A stretch of DNA of 64,000 bases from Flavobacteriaceae bacterium (GTDB lineage: Bacteria; Bacteroidota; Bacteroidia; Flavobacteriales; Flavobacteriaceae). Location: contig CANFHF010000009.1 in NCBI GenBank assembly GCA_947446635.1, positions 494 to 64,493 of the forward strand. Reading direction: 5' to 3'. A program made the translations under genes and the position numbers. A model generated the notes under the pieces. It ran no database searches and was not told where the DNA came from. It was given only the letters and a program-made list of their open reading frames with translations. Shown piece after piece: positions 21,203 to 44,832 of the stretch (the stretch's first letter is position 1; each line of letters opens with the position of its first letter).

Positions 21203-21244
21203 ATTGTTTTTAAAATTTAATTATTATGATTGCAAATAGTTTTT

Positions 21245-21775
21245 TTATTTTGTTTTCTTTTTCTTGGAATTTTCTCTAGCGATTTTCTCTTTTTCTAATT
21301 TTTCTTTTTCTAATTTTTCTTTTTCTAATTTTTCTTTTTCGGCTAATATCAATTCCATTTGAATCAACTTGTTTTTTAAATCCTCATTTTCTTGTTTTAA
21401 TTTAGTTTTTTTGAATTTATTCAAGATGCTATTTGGGTTATTTTCTTCTTCAATTCTCTCTTTTTCTAATTGTTCCTTTTCTCGTTCTTCTTTCGCTTCT
21501 TTTTCAATCCTATTTTGATTGTCTATTACTGCTTGAGCAGCATTAACTTGTGCTCTAGCTTGGATTTGAGCAGCTTCAATTTGCGATTTTCTTTGAGCAT
21601 TAGCTTGGATTGCTTGGATTGTTTGATTGGCTGAATTTCTAATATTATCTGCTGCTGTATTAGTTTGTTCTACGTGGTATATTGTTCTTCCAGTAGCTGA
21701 GCTTGGAGTAATTGTATAAGATTGAGCAATTACCGCAAAAGGAAACAAAATAAAAAGTAAAGTATATTTTTTCAT
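21245..21775 (-). CDS. Secreted coiled-coil hypothetical protein
   Basis: Signal peptide MKKYTLLFILFPFAVIAQ; Q/A-rich then E/K-rich helical body. Confidence 0.7.
   Translation of the reverse strand: MKKYTLLFILFPFAVIAQSYTITPSSATGRTIYHVEQTNTAADNIRNSANQTIQAIQANAQRKSQIEAAQIQARAQVNAAQAVIDNQNRIEKEAKEEREKEQLEKERIEEENNPNSILNKFKKTKLKQENEDLKNKLIQMELILAEKEKLEKEKLEKEKLEKEKIARENSKKKKTK
21291..21340. repeat. 15-bp tandem repeat (TTTTCTAATTTTTCT x3.3) encoding EKEKL
   Basis: Seen directly within the 176-aa ORF. Confidence 0.85.
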
Positions 21776-37225: not shown

Positions 37226-38764
37226 ATGATTAACGAATCCCAATTGCATAAAAATGATTTTTTTGGACACCCACGCGCCCTTTTTATTTTATTTTTTACC
37301 GAAATGTGGGAACGTTTTTCGTTCTATGGGATGAAAGCTTTGCTTATTTTTTACCTTACAAAATATTATTTATTTTCTGATGAAGCAGGGAATTTACTCA
37401 TTGGGAGTTATGCTGCATTGGTATATGCCATTCCGGTTGTTGGGGGTTTTATAGCGGATAGGTATTTAGGGTTTAGAAAAGCGATTGTTTTTGGGGGAAT
37501 ATTGTTAGTGTTGGGTCACCTCGGAATGGCTCATGAAGGAAATGCCACTACCAAATCATTGACCGGGGAAATTGTAAGGGATGATTTTGCATTGCAAATA
37601 TTTTATTTGTCCTTGGCTTTTATTGTTATGGGTGTTGGCTTTTTGAAAGCTAATATTTCATCGCTCGTGGGCGAGTTGTACCCCGTAGGCGATAAACGAA
37701 GAGATTCCGGATTTACCATTTTTTATATGGGAATCAATCTTGGTTCCTTTTTGGCTACGCTAATTTGCGTTTGGCTTGGCGAAGCCTATGGTTGGAGTTA
37801 TGGATTCGCGGCTGCCGGAGTTGGAATGTCTTTTGGGTTAATCACCTTCATTTCAGGAAGGAAATTATTATTGGGCAAAGGGGAATCCAAAGTGCCCGAA
37901 TTTCTGGCCGAAAAAACCATTGGCATCAAAAACGAATGGTGTATTTATGGGGCAAGTGTCGGATCGATACTAGTGATATGGCAAATGGTTCAAAGCCATA
38001 GCGTAGTTCAAAATTTGCTTATTGTTGCTGGGTCCATTTCATTTGTTTACATACTCTATTATGCCATAACACAATTGGATAAAATTGCCAGAGAACGTTT
38101 GTTTTCTCTCACTATTTTAATTGTTTTTACGGTTATTTTCTGGGCCTTGTTCGAGCAGGCGTATACTTCTTTGAATCTTTTTGCCGATAGAATTTTAGAT
38201 CGTGGCGCTATACCTGCGGGTAATTTCTTGAGTTTAAATGCTCTTTTTATTGTTTTGTTGGCTCCTGTTTTTGCCTGGTTTTGGGTGAAATTGGGGAAAT
38301 ACAACCCGAACACGGCGGTCAAATTTTCAATTGCCTTATTGCTGGTGGGACTCGGATTCGGGTCCTTGGTATTTGGTATCAACATTTCTGAAATGGGTAA
38401 AGTAAGTATGTTTTGGTTGGTGTTAACGTATTTCCTCCACACTTGTGCGGAGCTTTGTTTATCGCCTGTCGGACTGTCTGCGGTCACCAAATTGTCACCC
38501 ATAAAAATTGTTGGTTTTATGATGGGAGTATGGTTTTTAGCCACCGCAGGATCCGAATTTATAGCCTCCATATTGGCCAATATTGCCTCTGTGGATACCT
38601 CAAACGGGGAAGCGCCCGATTTGAATTTGGCAAAACAAAGCTATTTGAAACTTTTCGAATACTTATTTTATACCGGAATAGGGTTTGGAATTGTACTTTT
38701 GGCACTATCACGACCAATCAACAAATTAATGCACGGAGTAGATAAAGAATTAAACAATGAATGA
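37226..38764 (+). CDS. Proton-dependent oligopeptide transporter (POT/PTR2), copy 1
   Basis: FFTEMWERFSFYGM, FYMGINLGS, ELCLSPVGLS. Confidence 0.95.
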   Translation: MINESQLHKNDFFGHPRALFILFFTEMWERFSFYGMKALLIFYLTKYYLFSDEAGNLLIGSYAALVYAIPVVGGFIADRYLGFRKAIVFGGILLVLGHLGMAHEGNATTKSLTGEIVRDDFALQIFYLSLAFIVMGVGFLKANISSLVGELYPVGDKRRDSGFTIFYMGINLGSFLATLICVWLGEAYGWSYGFAAAGVGMSFGLITFISGRKLLLGKGESKVPEFLAEKTIGIKNEWCIYGASVGSILVIWQMVQSHSVVQNLLIVAGSISFVYILYYAITQLDKIARERLFSLTILIVFTVIFWALFEQAYTSLNLFADRILDRGAIPAGNFLSLNALFIVLLAPVFAWFWVKLGKYNPNTAVKFSIALLLVGLGFGSLVFGINISEMGKVSMFWLVLTYFLHTCAELCLSPVGLSAVTKLSPIKIVGFMMGVWFLATAGSEFIASILANIASVDTSNGEAPDLNLAKQSYLKLFEYLFYTGIGFGIVLLALSRPINKLMHGVDKELNNE

Positions 38765-40571
38765 TATGAACCAAAATTCAACCGACCATTTTTTTAAAAA
38801 TCCAGTTTTAGGACACCCAGCGGGATTATTTGTTTTGTTTTTTACCGAAATGTGGGAACGATTCTCCTTCTATGGGATGCGTTCCTTGCTTATTTTATTC
38901 TTGACCACTTCCTTTGCTGATGGGGGCTGGGAATGGACAAGAGAAAATGCTTCGGCTCTTTTTGGGTCTTATGTTGGCTTGGTTTATTTGTCAACGATGC
39001 TAGGCGGCTATTTTGCCGATAAGATAATCGGTTTCCGATGGGCTATCGTGCTTGGTGCTACTCTAATGACACTAGGGCATGCCTCGATGGCAATGGAAAC
39101 GGAATTTTCCATCTACCTTGGATTGGTGTTATTGGTTTTCGGCAACGGATTTTTCAAACCCAATATGACTTCGATAATTTCGGAAATGTATAAAGATAGA
39201 CCCGAGAAAAAAGATGGCGCTTATACTTTGTTTTATATGGGTGTTAATGCGGGTGCCTTTTTCGGAATATTGCTTTGCGGTTATTTAGGAGAAAAAGTGG
39301 GTTGGAGCTACGGTTTCGGCTTAGCAGGAGTTTTTATGTTTTTTGGAACCTTGCAGTTTTGGTTGTCCCAAAATATCTTTGGTGAGATTGGTTTAAAACC
39401 AAGTGCCGCAAGTAAGGCAAAAGCGGAAGCCATGGACACCGACAAAAGAAATCCATTTACCCCAATACAATTGAGTGTTATAGCAATAACCTGTCTTTTG
39501 GGATTGCTCTGGATTCTGAACGATCCAGCATCAAAAATTTCGGGAGGCAAAATAAATGTTTTTGGCTTTCTGGGCGAAAACGGAAATTCCATTGCCATTG
39601 TGACGGCCCTTATTCTATTTATCATGTTGCTGATGTACCGATTTACTCAATACTCCCAAATCACGAAAGAGAAATTAATAGCGGTGACATTTTTCGCTTT
39701 TTTGACCACTTTCTTTTGGGCGATTTTTGAACAGTCTCCCAATAGTTTAACCATTTTCGCCAGCGATTATACGAATAGGGTTTTGGAAGGAAACTGGAGC
39801 ATCACCTTTTTAGTGATTAACTCCTTGATTACGATATTGCCATTGGCCATTATCACTTGGGTTCTCTATTTATTGTTCAAGCAAACTTTCAAAAATTATG
39901 CTGTAGCCAATGTGATTTTAAGCACCAGTTTCGTGATTATTTGGACAATTTCCCTTTGGATGTTGGCCAAGGATTATTATACGGCAGGCTATTTGTCTCT
40001 GTCTGACGGAACTTTGGAACTTTTAAAAATTGATAAAGTAACCACACCATTAACCGAAGTTCCCGCTACTTGGTTTTCGACTCTAAACTCCCTATTTATC
40101 ATCACATTGGCACCCTTATTTTCCAAATGGTGGGAAAGCAAATACAATCCTTCCGCAAATTTAAAATTCGGAATAGGGATGTCCTTGCTGGCTTTGGGAA
40201 TGGCTTGCGTTGCTTTTGGTGCAGACGGCATACTTCCAGGAGCTAAAACGGCATCGGTAAGCATGATCTGGCTTATCCTGGTCTATCTTTTCCATACGAT
40301 GGCCGAATTGTGTATTTCTCCGGTGGGATTATCTTATGTGAGCAAATTAGTTCCCGCCAGAATGATTGCATTTATGTTTGGAGTTTGGTATCTTGCGGTC
40401 GCAATTGGAATGAAGGGAGCCGGGATGTTCGGAGAAAACATCGATACCATTGCAAATGAACACGGATTGAGTTATTTCTTTTGGATGTTAACCCTTGTTT
40501 CTATGGCAGTGGCGGTGTTTTCGATAGTCATGTCGCCCGTCATCAAAAAATTAATGCACGGTGTTCGATAA
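38757..40571 (+). CDS. Proton-dependent oligopeptide transporter (POT/PTR2), copy 2
   Basis: FFTEMWERFSFYGM, FYMGVNAGA, ELCISPVGLS. Confidence 0.95.
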   Translation: MNDMNQNSTDHFFKNPVLGHPAGLFVLFFTEMWERFSFYGMRSLLILFLTTSFADGGWEWTRENASALFGSYVGLVYLSTMLGGYFADKIIGFRWAIVLGATLMTLGHASMAMETEFSIYLGLVLLVFGNGFFKPNMTSIISEMYKDRPEKKDGAYTLFYMGVNAGAFFGILLCGYLGEKVGWSYGFGLAGVFMFFGTLQFWLSQNIFGEIGLKPSAASKAKAEAMDTDKRNPFTPIQLSVIAITCLLGLLWILNDPASKISGGKINVFGFLGENGNSIAIVTALILFIMLLMYRFTQYSQITKEKLIAVTFFAFLTTFFWAIFEQSPNSLTIFASDYTNRVLEGNWSITFLVINSLITILPLAIITWVLYLLFKQTFKNYAVANVILSTSFVIIWTISLWMLAKDYYTAGYLSLSDGTLELLKIDKVTTPLTEVPATWFSTLNSLFIITLAPLFSKWWESKYNPSANLKFGIGMSLLALGMACVAFGADGILPGAKTASVSMIWLILVYLFHTMAELCISPVGLSYVSKLVPARMIAFMFGVWYLAVAIGMKGAGMFGENIDTIANEHGLSYFFWMLTLVSMAVAVFSIVMSPVIKKLMHGVR

Positions 40572-40610: not shown

Positions 40611-41162
40611 ATGAAATCTAAAGTTCTACTATTATTGTTCTTGGGAATGCTGCAGCTTCAGGCTCAAACTGCTAAAAAAACAGCTTCAACCAAAAAGCCG
40701 ATTCCAGCTAAAACAACAACTGAAACGTCAAAAGAATCGGGCGATAGCGAACAGTCCAAGGAATTGGTTTGGCAGACGGATATGAACAAAGCCATTGCGA
40801 TGAGCAATAAAGCCAAAAAGCCCATGTTGTTGTTTTTTACGGGTAGCGATTGGTGCGGCTGGTGCATCCGCTTGCAGAATGAAGTTTTGAAAACTCCTGA
40901 ATTTGCTGCTTGGGCCAATAAAAACGTGATTTTGGTGGAGTTGGATTACCCAAGAAGAACCCCGCAATCCCCAGAGATTCAAAAGCAAAACGCGGAATTG
41001 CAGAACGCTTTTGGAATTCAAGGATTCCCTACGGTATGGTTTGCCAATGCGGAATCTAGAGAAGGGAAAGTAAATTTTGCACCCTTAGACAAAACAGGGT
41101 ACGTTGCCGGAGGGCCTGTAGCCTGGCTGGCAGTAGCCGATGGAATTCTAAATAAGAAATAA
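40611..41162 (+). CDS. Exported thioredoxin-family protein
   Basis: Signal peptide; FTGSDWCGWC CxxC; IQGFPT cis-Pro loop. Confidence 0.9.
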   Translation: MKSKVLLLLFLGMLQLQAQTAKKTASTKKPIPAKTTTETSKESGDSEQSKELVWQTDMNKAIAMSNKAKKPMLLFFTGSDWCGWCIRLQNEVLKTPEFAAWANKNVILVELDYPRRTPQSPEIQKQNAELQNAFGIQGFPTVWFANAESREGKVNFAPLDKTGYVAGGPVAWLAVADGILNKK

Positions 41163-41242
41163 TTTTTTTTACTCCAATCTAAAAAATCCCTTTTCGCCAG
41201 TTGAGTGAAAAGGGATTTTGTTTTTCTCGCAACTAGCTTCCC
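41136..41242. repeat. Direct repeat copy 1: thioredoxin 3' end, terminator and orphan comEC 3' end
   Basis: Matches 42767-42869: first 27 nt identical, comEC part 61/74 identical by hand alignment. Confidence 0.9.
41181..41219 (+). terminator. Terminator of the thioredoxin gene
   Basis: AAAATCCCTTTTC...GAAAAGGGATTTT hairpin. Confidence 0.8.
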
Positions 41243-41244
41243 CC

Positions 41245-41346
41245 GCTAGCGCGAGCGTCACGCTCGTGACAACAATCTCTTACAGGCACGAGTTAGAAGC
41301 TCGCGCTAGCTGGGGGGTGGGTCACGAGCTTGAAGTTCGCTAGAGC
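41245..41346. repeat. REP cluster 1: inverted doublet (41245-41268, 41287-41310) plus a degenerate unit (41323-41346)
   Basis: Unit GCTAGCGCGAGC-N6-CTCGTG (24 nt) with internal hairpin CGAGCG-TCA-CGCTCG. Confidence 0.9.
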
Positions 41347-41353
41347 AGAAGGA

Positions 41354-41905
41354 TCACGAGGATTGATTTTCCCAAAATCCAATGAATGAAGTCTGAGATT
41401 TTGCATGTTTTATCGCAAATATAATTCCGATGATAAATGAAATTAAGTAAAATCCACCAATCCCGCCCCTATTGATGTAAAATAAATCTAACAAACCTGC
41501 CAATAAATCATTTTCTGTATAAGAAATTTTTATATAATAAATAAAGAAGTGGGCTGAGACAAGAAATATACTTAAAACATATGCTATTAATACTTTAAAT
41601 TTTGGTGCCATATAACTACTTGCATTCACAAAAGTGTAGCTTGTAAAAATAGGTAAAATGATAAATGCAACAATACCAATGTTTACATGACCTCCATTAT
41701 CATCCTGCGATTCAGGAACAAAAGCCAATAGTAATCTTATTGCCAAGCCTAGAACAACAAATGCAATTAATGAATAAGGTAAAATCAGAATATATCTAAG
41801 AATAATAGGTAGTTTATTAACTTTTTTTGTGATTATCCAAAATAAATAACCCAATGTTAAAATTGATATTATTATAGCATAATTAGTAATTGTATCTGTA
41901 GTCAT
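41354..41905 (-). CDS. AT-rich multi-pass membrane protein (cargo, 183 aa)
   Basis: About 5 hydrophobic segments; bracketed by REP doublets; no family recognised. Confidence 0.7.
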   Translation of the reverse strand: MTTDTITNYAIIISILTLGYLFWIITKKVNKLPIILRYILILPYSLIAFVVLGLAIRLLLAFVPESQDDNGGHVNIGIVAFIILPIFTSYTFVNASSYMAPKFKVLIAYVLSIFLVSAHFFIYYIKISYTENDLLAGLLDLFYINRGGIGGFYLISFIIGIIFAIKHAKSQTSFIGFWENQSS

Positions 41906-41977
41906 AAAATTATTATTTTAAGTTTTTAAGTATAAAAATGTAAACTTATTTTAGGACGAGACATTAAATTTGCCCCC

Positions 41978-42043
41978 GCTAGCGCGAGCGTCACGCTCGT
42001 GCCAACAATCTCTTGCGTGCACGAGCTATAAGCTCGCGCTAGC
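41978..42043. repeat. REP cluster 2: inverted doublet (41978-42001, 42020-42043)
   Basis: First unit identical to 41245-41268; spacer CCAACAATCTCTTGCGTG similar to that of cluster 1; both doublets preceded by CCCCC. Confidence 0.92.
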
Positions 42044-42062
42044 ATTAGACCCACAATATCAA

Positions 42063-42611
42063 TCAATTTAAATCTATCTCTAAAACAGTATGGTCGTCAT
42101 TGCCATAATTTCTTGCACTGCTATATTTCCAATCTATAGGGTCGGTTACAAATCCTGTTTCTACTGGATTGTTATGAATATATTCCAACTTTTGTTCAAA
42201 AACTTTTAAGGACCAAATCTCAATTGGTTTATTATTTTGTTGCCAAAATTGTCTAAATTTAACATTACTGTTTTTCTTTCCGGCTCTTTCAAACATCCAG
42301 AGCATCCATTCGCGTCTGCTTTCTTGATTATTTTCTTCAATAAATTTCAACATTTTTCTGGAAGTAAAACCTTTAAAATCTCTTATCAATCCAGATGGAT
42401 CACCTAATGTTGACCTGAAAATTAAATGAATATGACTTGGCATAATGCAATACCCATAAATGTCCATTCCTTTATTTTTTCTACAAAAGTCGAGCGATTC
42501 AATGATAATATCAAAATAATCTACTCTCGTAAACACATCTATCCAATATACCGTTGAAAAACTTATAAAATAGGCTCCTTCTTTTTCGCCAAATTTATAT
42601 TTTCTGCTCAT
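42063..42611 (-). CDS. rayT: REP-associated tyrosine transposase (RAYT, Y1 HUH family)
   Basis: YFISFSTVYW, GYCIMPSHIHLI (HUH), FWQ, KLEYIHNNPV (catalytic Y), DWKYSSA. Confidence 0.93.
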   Translation of the reverse strand: MSRKYKFGEKEGAYFISFSTVYWIDVFTRVDYFDIIIESLDFCRKNKGMDIYGYCIMPSHIHLIFRSTLGDPSGLIRDFKGFTSRKMLKFIEENNQESRREWMLWMFERAGKKNSNVKFRQFWQQNNKPIEIWSLKVFEQKLEYIHNNPVETGFVTDPIDWKYSSARNYGNDDHTVLEIDLN

Positions 42612-42622
42612 GGTCTTTTTTT

Positions 42623-42630
42623 CAAATATA
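42623..42630 (-). promoter_or_regulatory. -7 promoter box of rayT
   Basis: TATATTTG 12 nt upstream of the ATG. Confidence 0.6.
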
Positions 42631-42699
42631 AATATTTATAAAACAACAAACTACAACTTTTTTGGGTTGTAGTTGGTTTTGTTTGCTTTTGTTAGTGGG

Positions 42700-42757
42700 C
42701 ACGAGCTAGAGGCTCGCGCTAGCATTAGAACTACACGAGTTTGAAGTTCGCACCAGT
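42700..42757. repeat. REP cluster 3: one unit (42700-42723) plus a degenerate unit (42734-42757)
   Basis: CACGAGCTAGAGGCTCGCGCTAGC and CACGAGTTTGAAGTTCGCACCAGT. Confidence 0.85.
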
Positions 42758-42766
42758 AATAAGTTT

Positions 42767-42869
42767 GCCGATGGAATTCTAAATAAGAAATAATTTCAAT
42801 CCAATCTATAAAATCCCTTTTTTCCCGTCGCATGAAAAGGGATTTTCATTTTCAGGCAACTAGCTTCCC
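42767..42869. repeat. Direct repeat copy 2: orphan thioredoxin 3' end plus the functional comEC 3' end
   Basis: GCCGATGGAATTCTAAATAAGAAATAA (ADGILNKK*) identical to 41136-41162. Confidence 0.9.
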
Positions 42870-44832
42870 AAAGGCTAATATACGTTTTATAATTAGAACC
42901 ATCAGCTACCACCATTTCAGGTTTTAGGGTTTGAAACATCCGCTCCAGATTTATTTTTGGGGATTGGGTCAGCACCACAATATCAGGAGTACTGTTTTTT
43001 GGATACACGCCCAAACTATCCAAAACTAAAATCTTTTTGTCCTGGAAATAAAGGGTGTTTTGTAGCTTTTTTTTCGATTTCAAATGACTGAAATTGCCCA
43101 TTAGGTAGGAGGTTAGCGTTTTATTTTCGGATGCGGTTTTCAAAAGGCTATCATTGGCAAACAGGGTACTATTTTCTCCATTTCGTTCCGTAATCAGCGT
43201 GTTTTTTTTCGAGTGGAAAATGACGAATTCTTTTTGGCTTTGATTCGTCCAATGGGTTTCGAAATAGGTGATTTGTAAAATAAAAATGGCGATCAAAGAA
43301 AGTGCGAGTCTATTGAAACTTGGTTTTTTGAACCAAAGAACCAAGCTGACAATCAACAAATAAAAACTCACTAATAAAGGCCAGTTGAACGGAATATCCC
43401 GAATGATAAATTGCTCTAATGAGGCAATGGCGTTGATGATTTTGTTCAAAATTAAAATGCTCCATTCGAATCCTTTGGCAAGAAACAACGGCACATAATC
43501 GAAGGCCGCCAATACCATGACCAAAACGCCCAAGCCCATAATGAGGCTCAAAAATGGAATAATCACCAAATTGGTCACAAAAAACAAGCCCGGAAACTGG
43601 TGAAAATAGTAAATGCTCAACGGGAATGCGCCAATTTGCGCGGCGAAAGAAACCGTGAGAATTTCCCAAAAGTAATTTGTTACTTTATTTTTAGGCACCC
43701 AAAGTTGGGCCAATAAAGGTTGTAACCAAAGAATAAAAAATAGGGCGATATAACTTAACTGAAAACCCACGTCAAACAAAAACGAAGGTTGGAATAGCAA
43801 AATAAGCAATATCGAAACCAATAAAGTATGGTAAATGTTGGTGCTTCTTCTTAAATACATGCCAATAGCCACAAACGAAAACATCGCCACGGAACGCACC
43901 ACCGAAGGAGCCAATCCTGCAATTAATCCGAAGAGCGATAACGACAGCAGAATAATTATCAACTTGATGAAAGAACCTCGCCTGGTATTAGGAAAAGGCT
44001 TGAGGAGGAAAGTCACAAAAAGCAGTATAAACCCAATGTGCAATCCCGAAACCGACAAAATATGTACGGCACCGGCATATTGGTAATCCCGAATAATATC
44101 GGGCGAAATCTCCTGTTGCTGTCCCAGAATTAAAGCAATGGCAACGTTGAGTTCTGCTTTGTTGAAATGGTTTTTTTCTAGATTATGAATAATTTTCGTG
44201 CGCAATTTAGACGTATAGTACCAAGGGTCTTTGTCCAGTCGAGAACCCGTTTGAATTTCGGCTGCATCGGCGTAGAGTTGGGCGTAGATTTGTTTGTTTT
44301 CGAGGTATTTGCCATAATCAAATTGGTTCGGATTTTTCGCTAGACTATTTTTATAAAGTGCGCCCTTGATGCGCAAATGAGTCCCTATTTCGAAAGGATG
44401 ATTCAAGCTGTCTTTTCGGACATTCAGGAGAATTCTGCCCGAATGTTTCTTGGTGTCGATTTTGTTTACAATCGCAATATAGCGGTCGTTATAAGCGGAA
44501 CTTCTGAGTTTTTCCCGAACAGTAACCGATATAAGATGCGGTTTTTCGAAAATCGTCGGGTCATGGACATAATTCGATTGCTGATAAGAATCGGTGTGGA
44601 TAATTTGTGTGGTGGCGCCTATTCCCATAGCAAGAAAATAAGTGGCAAAACCAAAATAGAGCGGATTTATGGTGATTTGTTTCGAAAGAAAATAAGTAAT
44701 ACTAAAGACGATTCCTGCGAGCAGCAGCAGGATAAATATACATTCGGGATTGGGGTTTAGATAATAAGCGCCAAGTATGCCCGCCACAAACCCAATCGTA
44801 ATTCTCGCTAAAGGGAATGTTAATATGCTCAT
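42796..44832 (-). CDS. comEC: ComEC/Rec2 competence protein
   Basis: NPNQFDYGKYL, GAVHILSVSGLH, PSVVRS, DVGFQLSY, FSSAQ-like SFAAQIGAFPL. Confidence 0.93.
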   Translation of the reverse strand: MSILTFPLARITIGFVAGILGAYYLNPNPECIFILLLLAGIVFSITYFLSKQITINPLYFGFATYFLAMGIGATTQIIHTDSYQQSNYVHDPTIFEKPHLISVTVREKLRSSAYNDRYIAIVNKIDTKKHSGRILLNVRKDSLNHPFEIGTHLRIKGALYKNSLAKNPNQFDYGKYLENKQIYAQLYADAAEIQTGSRLDKDPWYYTSKLRTKIIHNLEKNHFNKAELNVAIALILGQQQEISPDIIRDYQYAGAVHILSVSGLHIGFILLFVTFLLKPFPNTRRGSFIKLIIILLSLSLFGLIAGLAPSVVRSVAMFSFVAIGMYLRRSTNIYHTLLVSILLILLFQPSFLFDVGFQLSYIALFFILWLQPLLAQLWVPKNKVTNYFWEILTVSFAAQIGAFPLSIYYFHQFPGLFFVTNLVIIPFLSLIMGLGVLVMVLAAFDYVPLFLAKGFEWSILILNKIINAIASLEQFIIRDIPFNWPLLVSFYLLIVSLVLWFKKPSFNRLALSLIAIFILQITYFETHWTNQSQKEFVIFHSKKNTLITERNGENSTLFANDSLLKTASENKTLTSYLMGNFSHLKSKKKLQNTLYFQDKKILVLDSLGVYPKNSTPDIVVLTQSPKINLERMFQTLKPEMVVADGSNYKTYISLWEASCLKMKIPFHATGKKGFYRLD

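Follow-up and report, generated by a model that had tools for sequence, protein, structure and literature searches.

The question raised by the locus described here is why the end of one gene should occur twice, in two versions that differ and are both still in frame, on either side of a small transposase module. In a 64,000-nt stretch from a Flavobacteriaceae bacterium (contig CANFHF010000009.1 of assembly GCA_947446635.1; this entire stretch is called the window below), a thioredoxin-like gene, trx, and the competence gene comEC converge, and 1.63 kb of accessory DNA lies between them, including a gene for a REP-associated tyrosine transposase (RAYT; REP, repetitive extragenic palindrome). 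Both sides of the insert carry a copy of the trx/comEC junction, here called copies A and B. Comparison with related loci supports the view that the two copies are different natural alleles of the same gene end and that one of them, probably copy B, arrived together with the module.

The trx/comEC junction is present twice

Both genes at this junction are intact. The product of trx (40611..41162, plus strand) matches the Pfam families Thioredoxin_7/Thioredoxin_2 and, below the cut-off, a DsbH-like NCBIfam profile, while comEC (42796..44832, minus strand) encodes DUF4131 and Competence domains and is mosaic in its identity to relatives. A first-pass annotation of the window, made from the sequence alone, had described 41136-41242 and 42767-42869 as direct repeats, and alignment confirmed this for 107 nt and 103 nt, respectively, with a local score of 130 against a mean of 19 (sd 2.4, maximum 30) for shuffled sequences. 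Copy A (41136..41242) consists of the final 27 nt of the functional trx gene, a 6-nt spacer and an orphan comEC 3′ fragment of 24 codons plus stop, which is in frame (41169..41242, minus strand). Copy B (42767..42869) has the reverse allocation, with an orphan trx stub of 27-30 nt, a spacer of only 2 nt and the functional comEC tail; the distance between the two stop codons thus differs by 4 nt. The initial 30 nt of the copies are identical, comprising the 27 nt of trx coding sequence including the stop, for which identity had been noted before, and 3 nt more. Recounting the 74-nt comEC parts (41169-41242 vs 42796-42869) again gave 13 mismatches and no indels. Their translations, EASCEKNKIPFHSTGEKGFFRLE followed by a TAA stop in A and EASCLKMKIPFHATGKKGFYRLD followed by TGA in B, are both in frame and agree with those given earlier, as does the observation that the left copy continues straight into a REP: copy A directly abuts, with an overlap of 3 nt, an inverted REP doublet (REPIN) at 41240-41316. 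Only the distance on the right had to be corrected, since copy B begins 15 nt, not 9 nt, past the last REP if the latter is defined by its hairpin (42734-42751).

This structure is not an assembly chimera, an alternative that the first-pass annotation had raised, and it recurs in independent assemblies. The 5 kb compared have an exact counterpart in L082 (NCBI metagenome-assembled genome GCA_947379855.1; 100% identity), and L081, an ENA contig of 48 kb with a k141_ name in the style of MEGAHIT, matches them at 99.98%. Judging from this name, assembly words of 141 nt were used, which would bridge the 71-nt REP doublets; the identity of L081 and L082 thus excludes a chimeric origin. Shorter contigs from four other runs (L083-L087) end at REPs, as repeats would cause, and in run X1, where the region is represented by two contigs overlapping by 27 nt at a REP, read depth is even at ~14x.

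The two copies correspond to two natural classes of comEC ends

We searched for ComEC in one genome per GTDB species and obtained 80 Flavobacterium loci (L001-L080). In most of them trx and comEC are convergent, with 1-10 nt between the stop codons. The best match to copy A within these 80 representatives was 64/75, as if A were a drifted copy without a near allele, an interpretation that was given up when contigs with close trx homologues yielded relatives. Sites without an insert, which the first-pass annotation had proposed to look for, were found among close relatives at L001, L004, L167-L175 and L179. Candidate loop-out or empty-site joints in Logan unitigs from mixed lake metagenomes (41130>42785 and 41219>42876) carried 23-29 divergent letters and were discarded as the empty sites of other species.

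Within this species complex, the comEC ends fall into two natural classes. Class 1 ends in ...GFYRLD with a TGA stop and a 2-nt spacer and is functional in L179, L004 and L003, whereas class 2 ends in ...GF(F/Y)RLE with a TAA stop and a 6-nt spacer of A residues and is functional in L167, one of the empty sites. Copy B belongs to class 1 (D, TGA, 2 nt) and copy A to class 2 (E, TAA, 6 nt). The diagnostic states of A are found in the functional comEC of L167 (GFFRLE; TTT AGA TTr GAG TAA plus the 6-nt A spacer), to which A is 91.6% identical over 107 nt, compared with 82% for B. Where A and B differ (13 sites), L167 has the state of A at 9 sites, that of B at 3 and a state of its own at 1, and its spacer has the length of that in A. 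Between copy B and J1, the copy attached to comEC in L088, the identity is 99% and extends over the trx stub and the linker AAACTTATTA. The closest alleles of the two copies, a comparison suggested in the first-pass annotation, therefore belong to different lineages, L167 for A and L088 for B, as expected for a resident and a donor end. As A-type states are present in a functional allele, the repeats were already different alleles before they were joined on one molecule. These comparisons support the interpretation of A and B as two natural alleles rather than as a decayed target-site duplication.

That both alleles evolved under coding selection had been deduced earlier from the differences between the copies. 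The deduction gains from the evidence of L167 and L088, but the codon counts within the window, on which it was founded, would be expected from drift no less than from selection. The ratio of nonsynonymous to synonymous differences (pN/pS) has a value of 0.52 between A and B; relative to their inferred ancestor it is 0.70 for A and 0.23 for B, and the median pair of functional alleles has 0.31. Of the coding differences between A and B, 6/12 are at third codon positions. Two further counts speak against drift. Each of the changes of A from the consensus (8/8) leads to a state that occurs in 3 or more of 71 functional alleles, although only 45-58% of the possible substitutions reach such states (P ~0.002-0.01), and the trx stub has 0/30 mismatches next to 13/74 in the comEC tail, for which equal drift gives (1-0.176)^30, or ~0.003. 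Some decay of copy A after its displacement is likely.

The insert carries a RAYT gene, REPs and an ORFan

Read from trx towards comEC, the insert consists of a REPIN and a REP, an open reading frame (ORF) without known family, another REPIN, the RAYT gene, a REP pair and a linker. The first group (41240..41358) contains the REPIN whose outer end abuts copy A (41240-41316; predicted DNA fold -30.3 kcal/mol, z -7.95) and a further REP (41322-41358). The second REPIN (41973..42043; -26 kcal/mol, z -6) is 92% identical to 41240-41310. The RAYT gene (42063..42611, minus strand) was assigned by NCBIfam NF047646 (93.2 bits, cut-off 80), with an IS200 model scoring under its cut-off, by Pfam Y1_Tnp (30.7 bits, cut-off 23) and by a weak match to TnpA-REP of E. 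coli (4er8). It is bracketed by palindromic REP units in inverted pairs at 41245-41358, 41973-42043 and 42699-42751, and the same REP core brackets most of the RAYT homologues that were fetched. On its comEC side lies the REP pair (42699..42751), which is followed by the 15-nt linker (42752..42766; reverse complement AAACTTATTACTGGT) between REP and trx stub. All REP matches in the window (5/5) are at this locus; in metagenomes, REP words are 5-7x deeper than the flanks. The GC content is 28-32% in the insert vs 37-47% in the flanks. Metatranscriptome contigs cover the RAYT gene at low level (fragmentary, from related strains, in two runs).

The ORF between the two REPINs (41354..41905, minus strand; GC 28-31%) encodes a hydrophobic membrane protein of 183 aa, for which Pfam and NCBIfam scans gave no family match and a search of 5.8 billion proteins returned a 97% twin and no other homologue. 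It is missing from L002 and L088, and its depth in other lake metagenomes is far below that of the RAYT gene. With its position between two 92%-identical REPINs, this ORFan looks like a recent addition. Neither an integrase nor another recombinase was found among the scanned cargo ORFs of the window, L088, L010, L021, L029, L110 and L126, and a search for terminal inverted repeats at the cargos was negative. Directly upstream of the RAYT start codon, at 42640-42685, there is another hairpin (AACTACAAC...GTTGTAGTT) with a stem of 9-11 bp, which is kept in both L002 and L088 and might act as a terminator that shields the RAYT gene from read-through out of comEC, or as a regulatory element.

Two relatives share the module at the same site, with a RAYT that is 99% identical in both. 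Window and L088 are 98-100% identical from ~42993 to 42006, with comEC bodies that form a mosaic of 78-100% identity and trx genes of ~88%. For window and L002, identity is 97-100% over RAYT and its REP (42681-42006), and the trx stub and linker are common to both (42752-42797), with differing comEC tails. The stub/linker junction is therefore common to window, L088 and L002, and it must have existed in the donor beforehand, as it is present in three lineages. The junction between A and the REPIN is unique to the window.

The comEC tail appears to contain a terminator shared with trx

At the core of the repeat, a 12-bp stem and a 13-nt centre form a hairpin within the last 20 codons of comEC. 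It is near-invariant at the nucleotide level across >70 Flavobacterium species, even at 55% ComEC identity (codons KIPFHxTxEKGF). In copy A (41183..41219, plus strand) the stem extends to 15 pairs and the T tract GTTTTTCT follows, which predicts an intrinsic terminator for trx, with an RNA fold of -20.5 kcal/mol (z -3.9); in copy B the hairpin lies at 42810..42846, in the final 20 comEC codons. It appears to be a bidirectional terminator that lies within the comEC codons and also serves the convergent trx. The stems are kept in all orphan copies, and a T-rich tract is present in those that could be inspected, with the codons upstream frameshifted in L010 and L021 and replaced in L088, L176 and L180. 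The simplest reason for the persistence of orphan A is probably its predicted role as the terminator of trx. With stop codons 2-6 nt apart and a shared terminator inside comEC, only those joints would be harmless that leave trx its hairpin and T tract, and selection for them would explain the shape of the repeats at this junction.

Unrelated cargos are inserted at the same junction

The trx/comEC junction is a recurrent insertion hotspot for unrelated cargos, each accompanied by a second comEC-tail hairpin beside trx. Apart from the window, these cargos comprise an M66 peptidase gene with a sorting tail of the type IX secretion system (L010, 5781-8299), a PIN toxin and its small partner ORF (L021, 7978-8806), two genes of unknown function (L029, 7961-10588), Por_Secre_tail and beta-helix genes (L176/L177), a Fib_succ protein with an IS30-like transposase gene (L180; the sole exception to the absence of recombinases from the scanned cargo ORFs) and, in L088, a 104-kb JGI contig, the RAYT gene with an XRE/TPR island. 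The repeats have lengths of 65-105 nt with variable boundaries, and the cargos measure 0.8-3.7 kb. Since cargos without RAYT occur at this junction, a REP is not required.

The copy of class 2 always adjoins trx, regardless of whether it is followed by REPIN and ORFan (window), by the XRE/TPR island (L088), by Por_Secre_tail (L176/L177) or by Fib_succ and the IS30-like gene (L180). The left boundary of the orphan in the window differs from the boundary that is common to L088, L176, L177 and L180. The association of this tail with trx beside at least three different cargos and with differing left boundaries shows that it is linked to trx and not to the cargo.

Several other rearrangements were observed in this neighborhood. 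In L003 (8037-8080), trx is deleted but for its last ~40 nt, which are still attached to the comEC stop, and in L002 (5754-5828) a third copy of the junction with half a hairpin (J2′) lies between the REPIN of the RAYT module and an XRE gene; these relics suggest nested events. In L025 (3678-4640), the 5′ region of comEC may be present a second time as a fragment, since the tblastn match to ComEC continues for ~960 nt beyond the intact gene on its upstream side. The F. johnsoniae-like group has 1-2 extra genes of ~150 aa between comEC and trx, one of which, in L071, has a weak thioredoxin-like match under the Pfam cut-off. In L071, L072 and L074 (~7985, ~8696), a second comEC hairpin and tail lies between them. 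These loci were not counted as an independent insertion and may represent an old tandem duplication of a thioredoxin-like gene.

Allelic gene-end repeats flank RAYT modules at other loci

A scan of JGI metagenome contigs for RAYT genes yielded 79 loci, of which L088 was the only one at comEC; 53 of them were tested for repeats flanking the module. In L137 (3546-4907), the repeat is 229 nt long and derives from the 3′ end of a Tex-like gene; 8/9 of its coding mismatches are at third positions, and a single amino acid is changed. An 86-nt repeat of the cmk end surrounds a RAYT gene with a Phd/YoeB pair in L110 (979-2727), and long direct repeats bracket the RAYT module at a third locus, L147 (3215-6304). 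In L126 (2904-5102), a RAYT gene and an unknown gene of 306 aa are inserted between nuoD and nuoH within the NADH dehydrogenase operon, with two repeats, one of 57 nt from the nuoD end (8/8 mismatches synonymous) and one of 185 nt from the nuoH start. The order here is nuoD, cargo, nuoH-5′ orphan, nuoD-3′ orphan, nuoH, and the two orphans are fused at a microhomology of 6-7 nt. Read from its sequence, L126 is the exact product that a circularised fragment inserted by one crossover would leave.

For a duplication followed by drift, ~43% of the mismatches are expected at third positions, and the higher shares in L137 (P ~0.007) and L126 (P ~0.001) reject this model. In addition, the repeat pairs (~9) are 85-96% identical and none exceeds 96%, as expected if the copies already differed at insertion. 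In five of the six RAYT cases (window, L002, L137, L110, L147), a REP borders directly on one of the repeat copies, with its outer end (...GCnAGC(N)GGGG) at the joint and an overlap of 0-3 nt. Wherever the gene could be assigned, it is the orphan that meets the REP, with its gene-proximal boundary; the boundary positions on the gene side have no motif in common. The joints lack homology or involve microhomology only, with 3 nt in the window (GCTAGCGGGG joined to GAAGC), 6-7 nt in L126 and 0-3 nt in L137, L110, L002 and L147. A possible reading of this pattern, which we put forward tentatively, is that either an end made by the RAYT or a break at a REP hairpin often supplies the non-homologous end.

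Proposed origin of the insert and alternative explanations

We propose that recombination with a related Flavobacterium lineage added the 1.63-kb segment at the convergent trx/comEC junction. The incoming fragment would have carried the comEC tail allele B, the 27-30-nt relic of a truncated trx, the REP-RAYT-REP module and, in this lineage, the ORFan with its REPINs. One of its ends would have been exchanged by homologous recombination within the comEC tail or a short way upstream of it. The other, the outer REPIN end (...GCTAGCGGGG), would have been joined non-homologously at a distance of 74 nt from the resident comEC stop, on its upstream side. Together, the two joins would give the same product as the insertion of a circularised fragment by a single crossover. 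As a result, comEC would now finish with the imported tail, and the resident tail A, displaced, would have remained attached to trx. The direction of the event can be read from the joints, because the A-REPIN junction, unique to the window, should be the new one and the stub/linker junction of three lineages that of the donor. We therefore think it probable that the event displaced A, the resident end, and brought in B with the module. The first-pass annotation had suggested that the module came with a piece of donor chromosome through crossover of a circle or joining at a REP. This suggestion fits all data, and L126 and four REP-abutting loci agree with it, while for the route itself we infer the order of events and the strand exchanges from the sequences compared, and the polarity and the position of the crossover from linkage. 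Cleavage by the RAYT may have had a part in making the REP-end joint.

Several observations weigh against this scenario. The pN/pS of 0.70 for A vs the inferred ancestor is one of them. A and L167 differ at 7/75 nt, and in two codons the change is non-conservative (L to E, A to S). Four of the changes in A are absent from the homologous orphan of L088. In addition, GCT AGT is common to A and B at a place where L167 reads GCC ACT; a wholly resident A does not predict this without crossover or gene conversion at its left edge. Similarly, both copies in the window and the stubs of L088 and L002 read GAATTCC, whereas the others compared have GAATGCC, except L179 (GAATACC) and L003 (GAATTCT). The shared GCTAGT and GAATTCC could come from the crossover, from later gene conversion or from an unsampled resident allele. 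A functional B-type tail at an empty site was absent from all sampled genomes, and the data throughout are metagenome assemblies and contigs.

The opposite polarity, in which A came with the cargo from a donor by exchange on the trx side, B and the stub are resident and the non-homologous join is that between trx stub and AAACTTATTA, is unlikely but deserves the most attention among the alternatives. Donors with trx, an A-type orphan and cargo do exist (L088, L176, L177, L180), the GAATTCC at the trx end of the window matches the stub, and its trx gene is ~12% distant from all relatives. However, the stub/AAACTTATTA junction is found in three lineages and so predates the event in the window, the A-REPIN junction is unique to the window, and it is B, not A with trx, that forms one tract of 98-100% identity with the module between window and L088. 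A classical target-site duplication by a transposon was rejected, as the repeats are 57-229 nt long, variable and drawn from two pre-existing allele classes. Improbable, too, is a duplication in situ, of a long target or in tandem, when the module inserted, followed by drift of an orphan whose hairpin was kept as terminator. The pN/pS values of 0.52-0.70 within the window would be compatible with such drift, as would the conservation of the hairpin stems next to variable loops and flanks, and A and B do share GCTAGT. Yet the states specific to A and the 4-nt spacer difference pre-exist in the functional allele of L167, and an identical stub (30/30) beside a tail with 13/74 mismatches (P ~0.003) is hardly expected. 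Neither are the third-position and synonymous biases at L137 and L126 (P ~0.007 and ~0.001), nor the lack of any pair above 96% identity among ~9.

A tyrosine recombinase supplied in trans could have integrated the inserts site-specifically at the hairpin, with the inverted arms as att core and the inserts as integrase-less cassettes or remnants of larger islands. This would explain why a 12-bp inverted repeat with a 13-nt centre lies in the middle of every duplication at this junction and why the hotspot holds so many unrelated cargos. It would also suit L002, in which J1 and J2′ occur in tandem, probably with a third copy beyond the contig end by analogy with L088. We regard it as very improbable given that no such enzyme was found in the scanned cargo ORFs, apart from the IS30-like transposase in L180, that the boundaries differ per event and fall inside the loop in L002, and that the same kind of allelic repeat is present at Tex, cmk and nuoD/nuoH without such a hairpin. 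Least credible of all is an artefact in which two strain variants were stitched together through REPs. The metagenomic origin of the data and the frequent breaks of short-read contigs at REPs (L083-L087, Logan pieces) could invite this suspicion, but separate assemblies from different samples have the same structure on spanning contigs of 12.7 kb and 48 kb, the depth of ~14x in run X1 is even, and an equivalent architecture exists in the 104-kb contig of L088. The displacement of a resident end A by an imported end B thus remains our preferred explanation.

Other features of the window

Two repetitive features lie outside the trx/comEC locus. Degenerate 15-nt tandem repeats (TTTTTCTAATTTTTC-like), of which 7 copies were found at 21239-21505, probably encode, on the opposite strand, a repetitive stretch rich in E and K. 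Two tandem paralogous genes for POT/PTR2 peptide transporters (37226-38764 and 38757-40571) overlap by 8 nt and share in their 5′ regions a 120-nt segment with 75% identity.

Comparison with known systems and significance

Elements of the IS200/IS605 family, such as IS608, use a Y1 transposase and subterminal hairpins and form a circular single-stranded intermediate in which the right end is joined to the left end. They insert at a fixed tetra- or pentanucleotide, without a duplication and without a host gene end. The locus described here resembles them in its related Y1 transposase and its hairpin-defined ends, but its left boundaries have no motif in common, and different loci carry different local gene ends. 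The element e14 or phage 21 in icd of E. coli, as well as islands in tRNA genes, supply a replacement for the 3′ end of the gene into which they integrate. Such integrase-mediated insertion is comparable in that a diverged functional 3′ end, here the copy B completing comEC, is brought in and the resident end becomes an in-frame orphan; the differences are the lack of an integrase in the scanned cargo ORFs and of a fixed att core, together with the variable boundaries. With integron cassettes the hotspot has in common small promoterless cargos including toxin-antitoxin pairs, each with a hairpin repeat at a single site. In contrast to them, neither IntI nor attI is present, the repeat is the end of a neighboring gene, and the orientation of the cargo varies. 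The footprint thus belongs neither to IS200/IS605 insertions nor to integron cassettes, nor is it the target duplication of a transposon.

A further parallel is homology-facilitated illegitimate recombination, or Campbell-type insertion, in which one homologous and one non-homologous or microhomologous join leave a repeat of the anchor. Known cases are from the laboratory with engineered substrates, whereas the ones reported here are natural, recurrent and allelic, and those with RAYT are joined at the end of a REP. In E. coli conjugation, a single crossover of circularised DNA gave duplications of 109-950 bp (PMC3240628).

The module itself resembles REPIN-RAYT systems, in which a gene of the Y1/HUH type is flanked by inverted REP doublets that fold into long hairpins. 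In our reading of the literature (PMC3116915; PMC5581495), RAYTs are described as single-copy, mainly vertically inherited and without a known insertion footprint, and term searches in PMC5581495 gave no passage on flanking repeats of the present kind. Here, by contrast, the module is 98-100% identical between lineages with flanking genes that are 6-12% apart, and allelic gene-end repeats bracket it. Our literature searches on RAYT in Flavobacterium and on gene-end duplications around RAYTs found no earlier description.

The locus represents a natural footprint of the addition of accessory genes at a chromosomal hotspot without an integrase. As the repeats are allelic, the donor side and the resident side can be distinguished, and such footprints can be searched for systematically. 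More speculatively, RAYT-REP modules might not be immobile, domesticated genes but might spread between related genomes as chromosomal fragments with one end cut by the RAYT exactly at the outer REP or REPIN end, and with the gene-end allele of the donor serving as homology adapter. Insertion would then complete the gene with the imported end, and the resident end would be left behind as an orphan fused to the REP. If this were true, it would be a recombination-assisted mode of mobility new for Y1 transposase systems, recognizable from the combination of allelic gene-end repeats and REP abutment. If the RAYT makes the REP-end joint, single-stranded CACGAGCGTGACGCTCGCGCTAGCGGGGG is predicted to be cut just 3′ of the G run, and such an activity would account for the movement of REPs and RAYTs between genomes.

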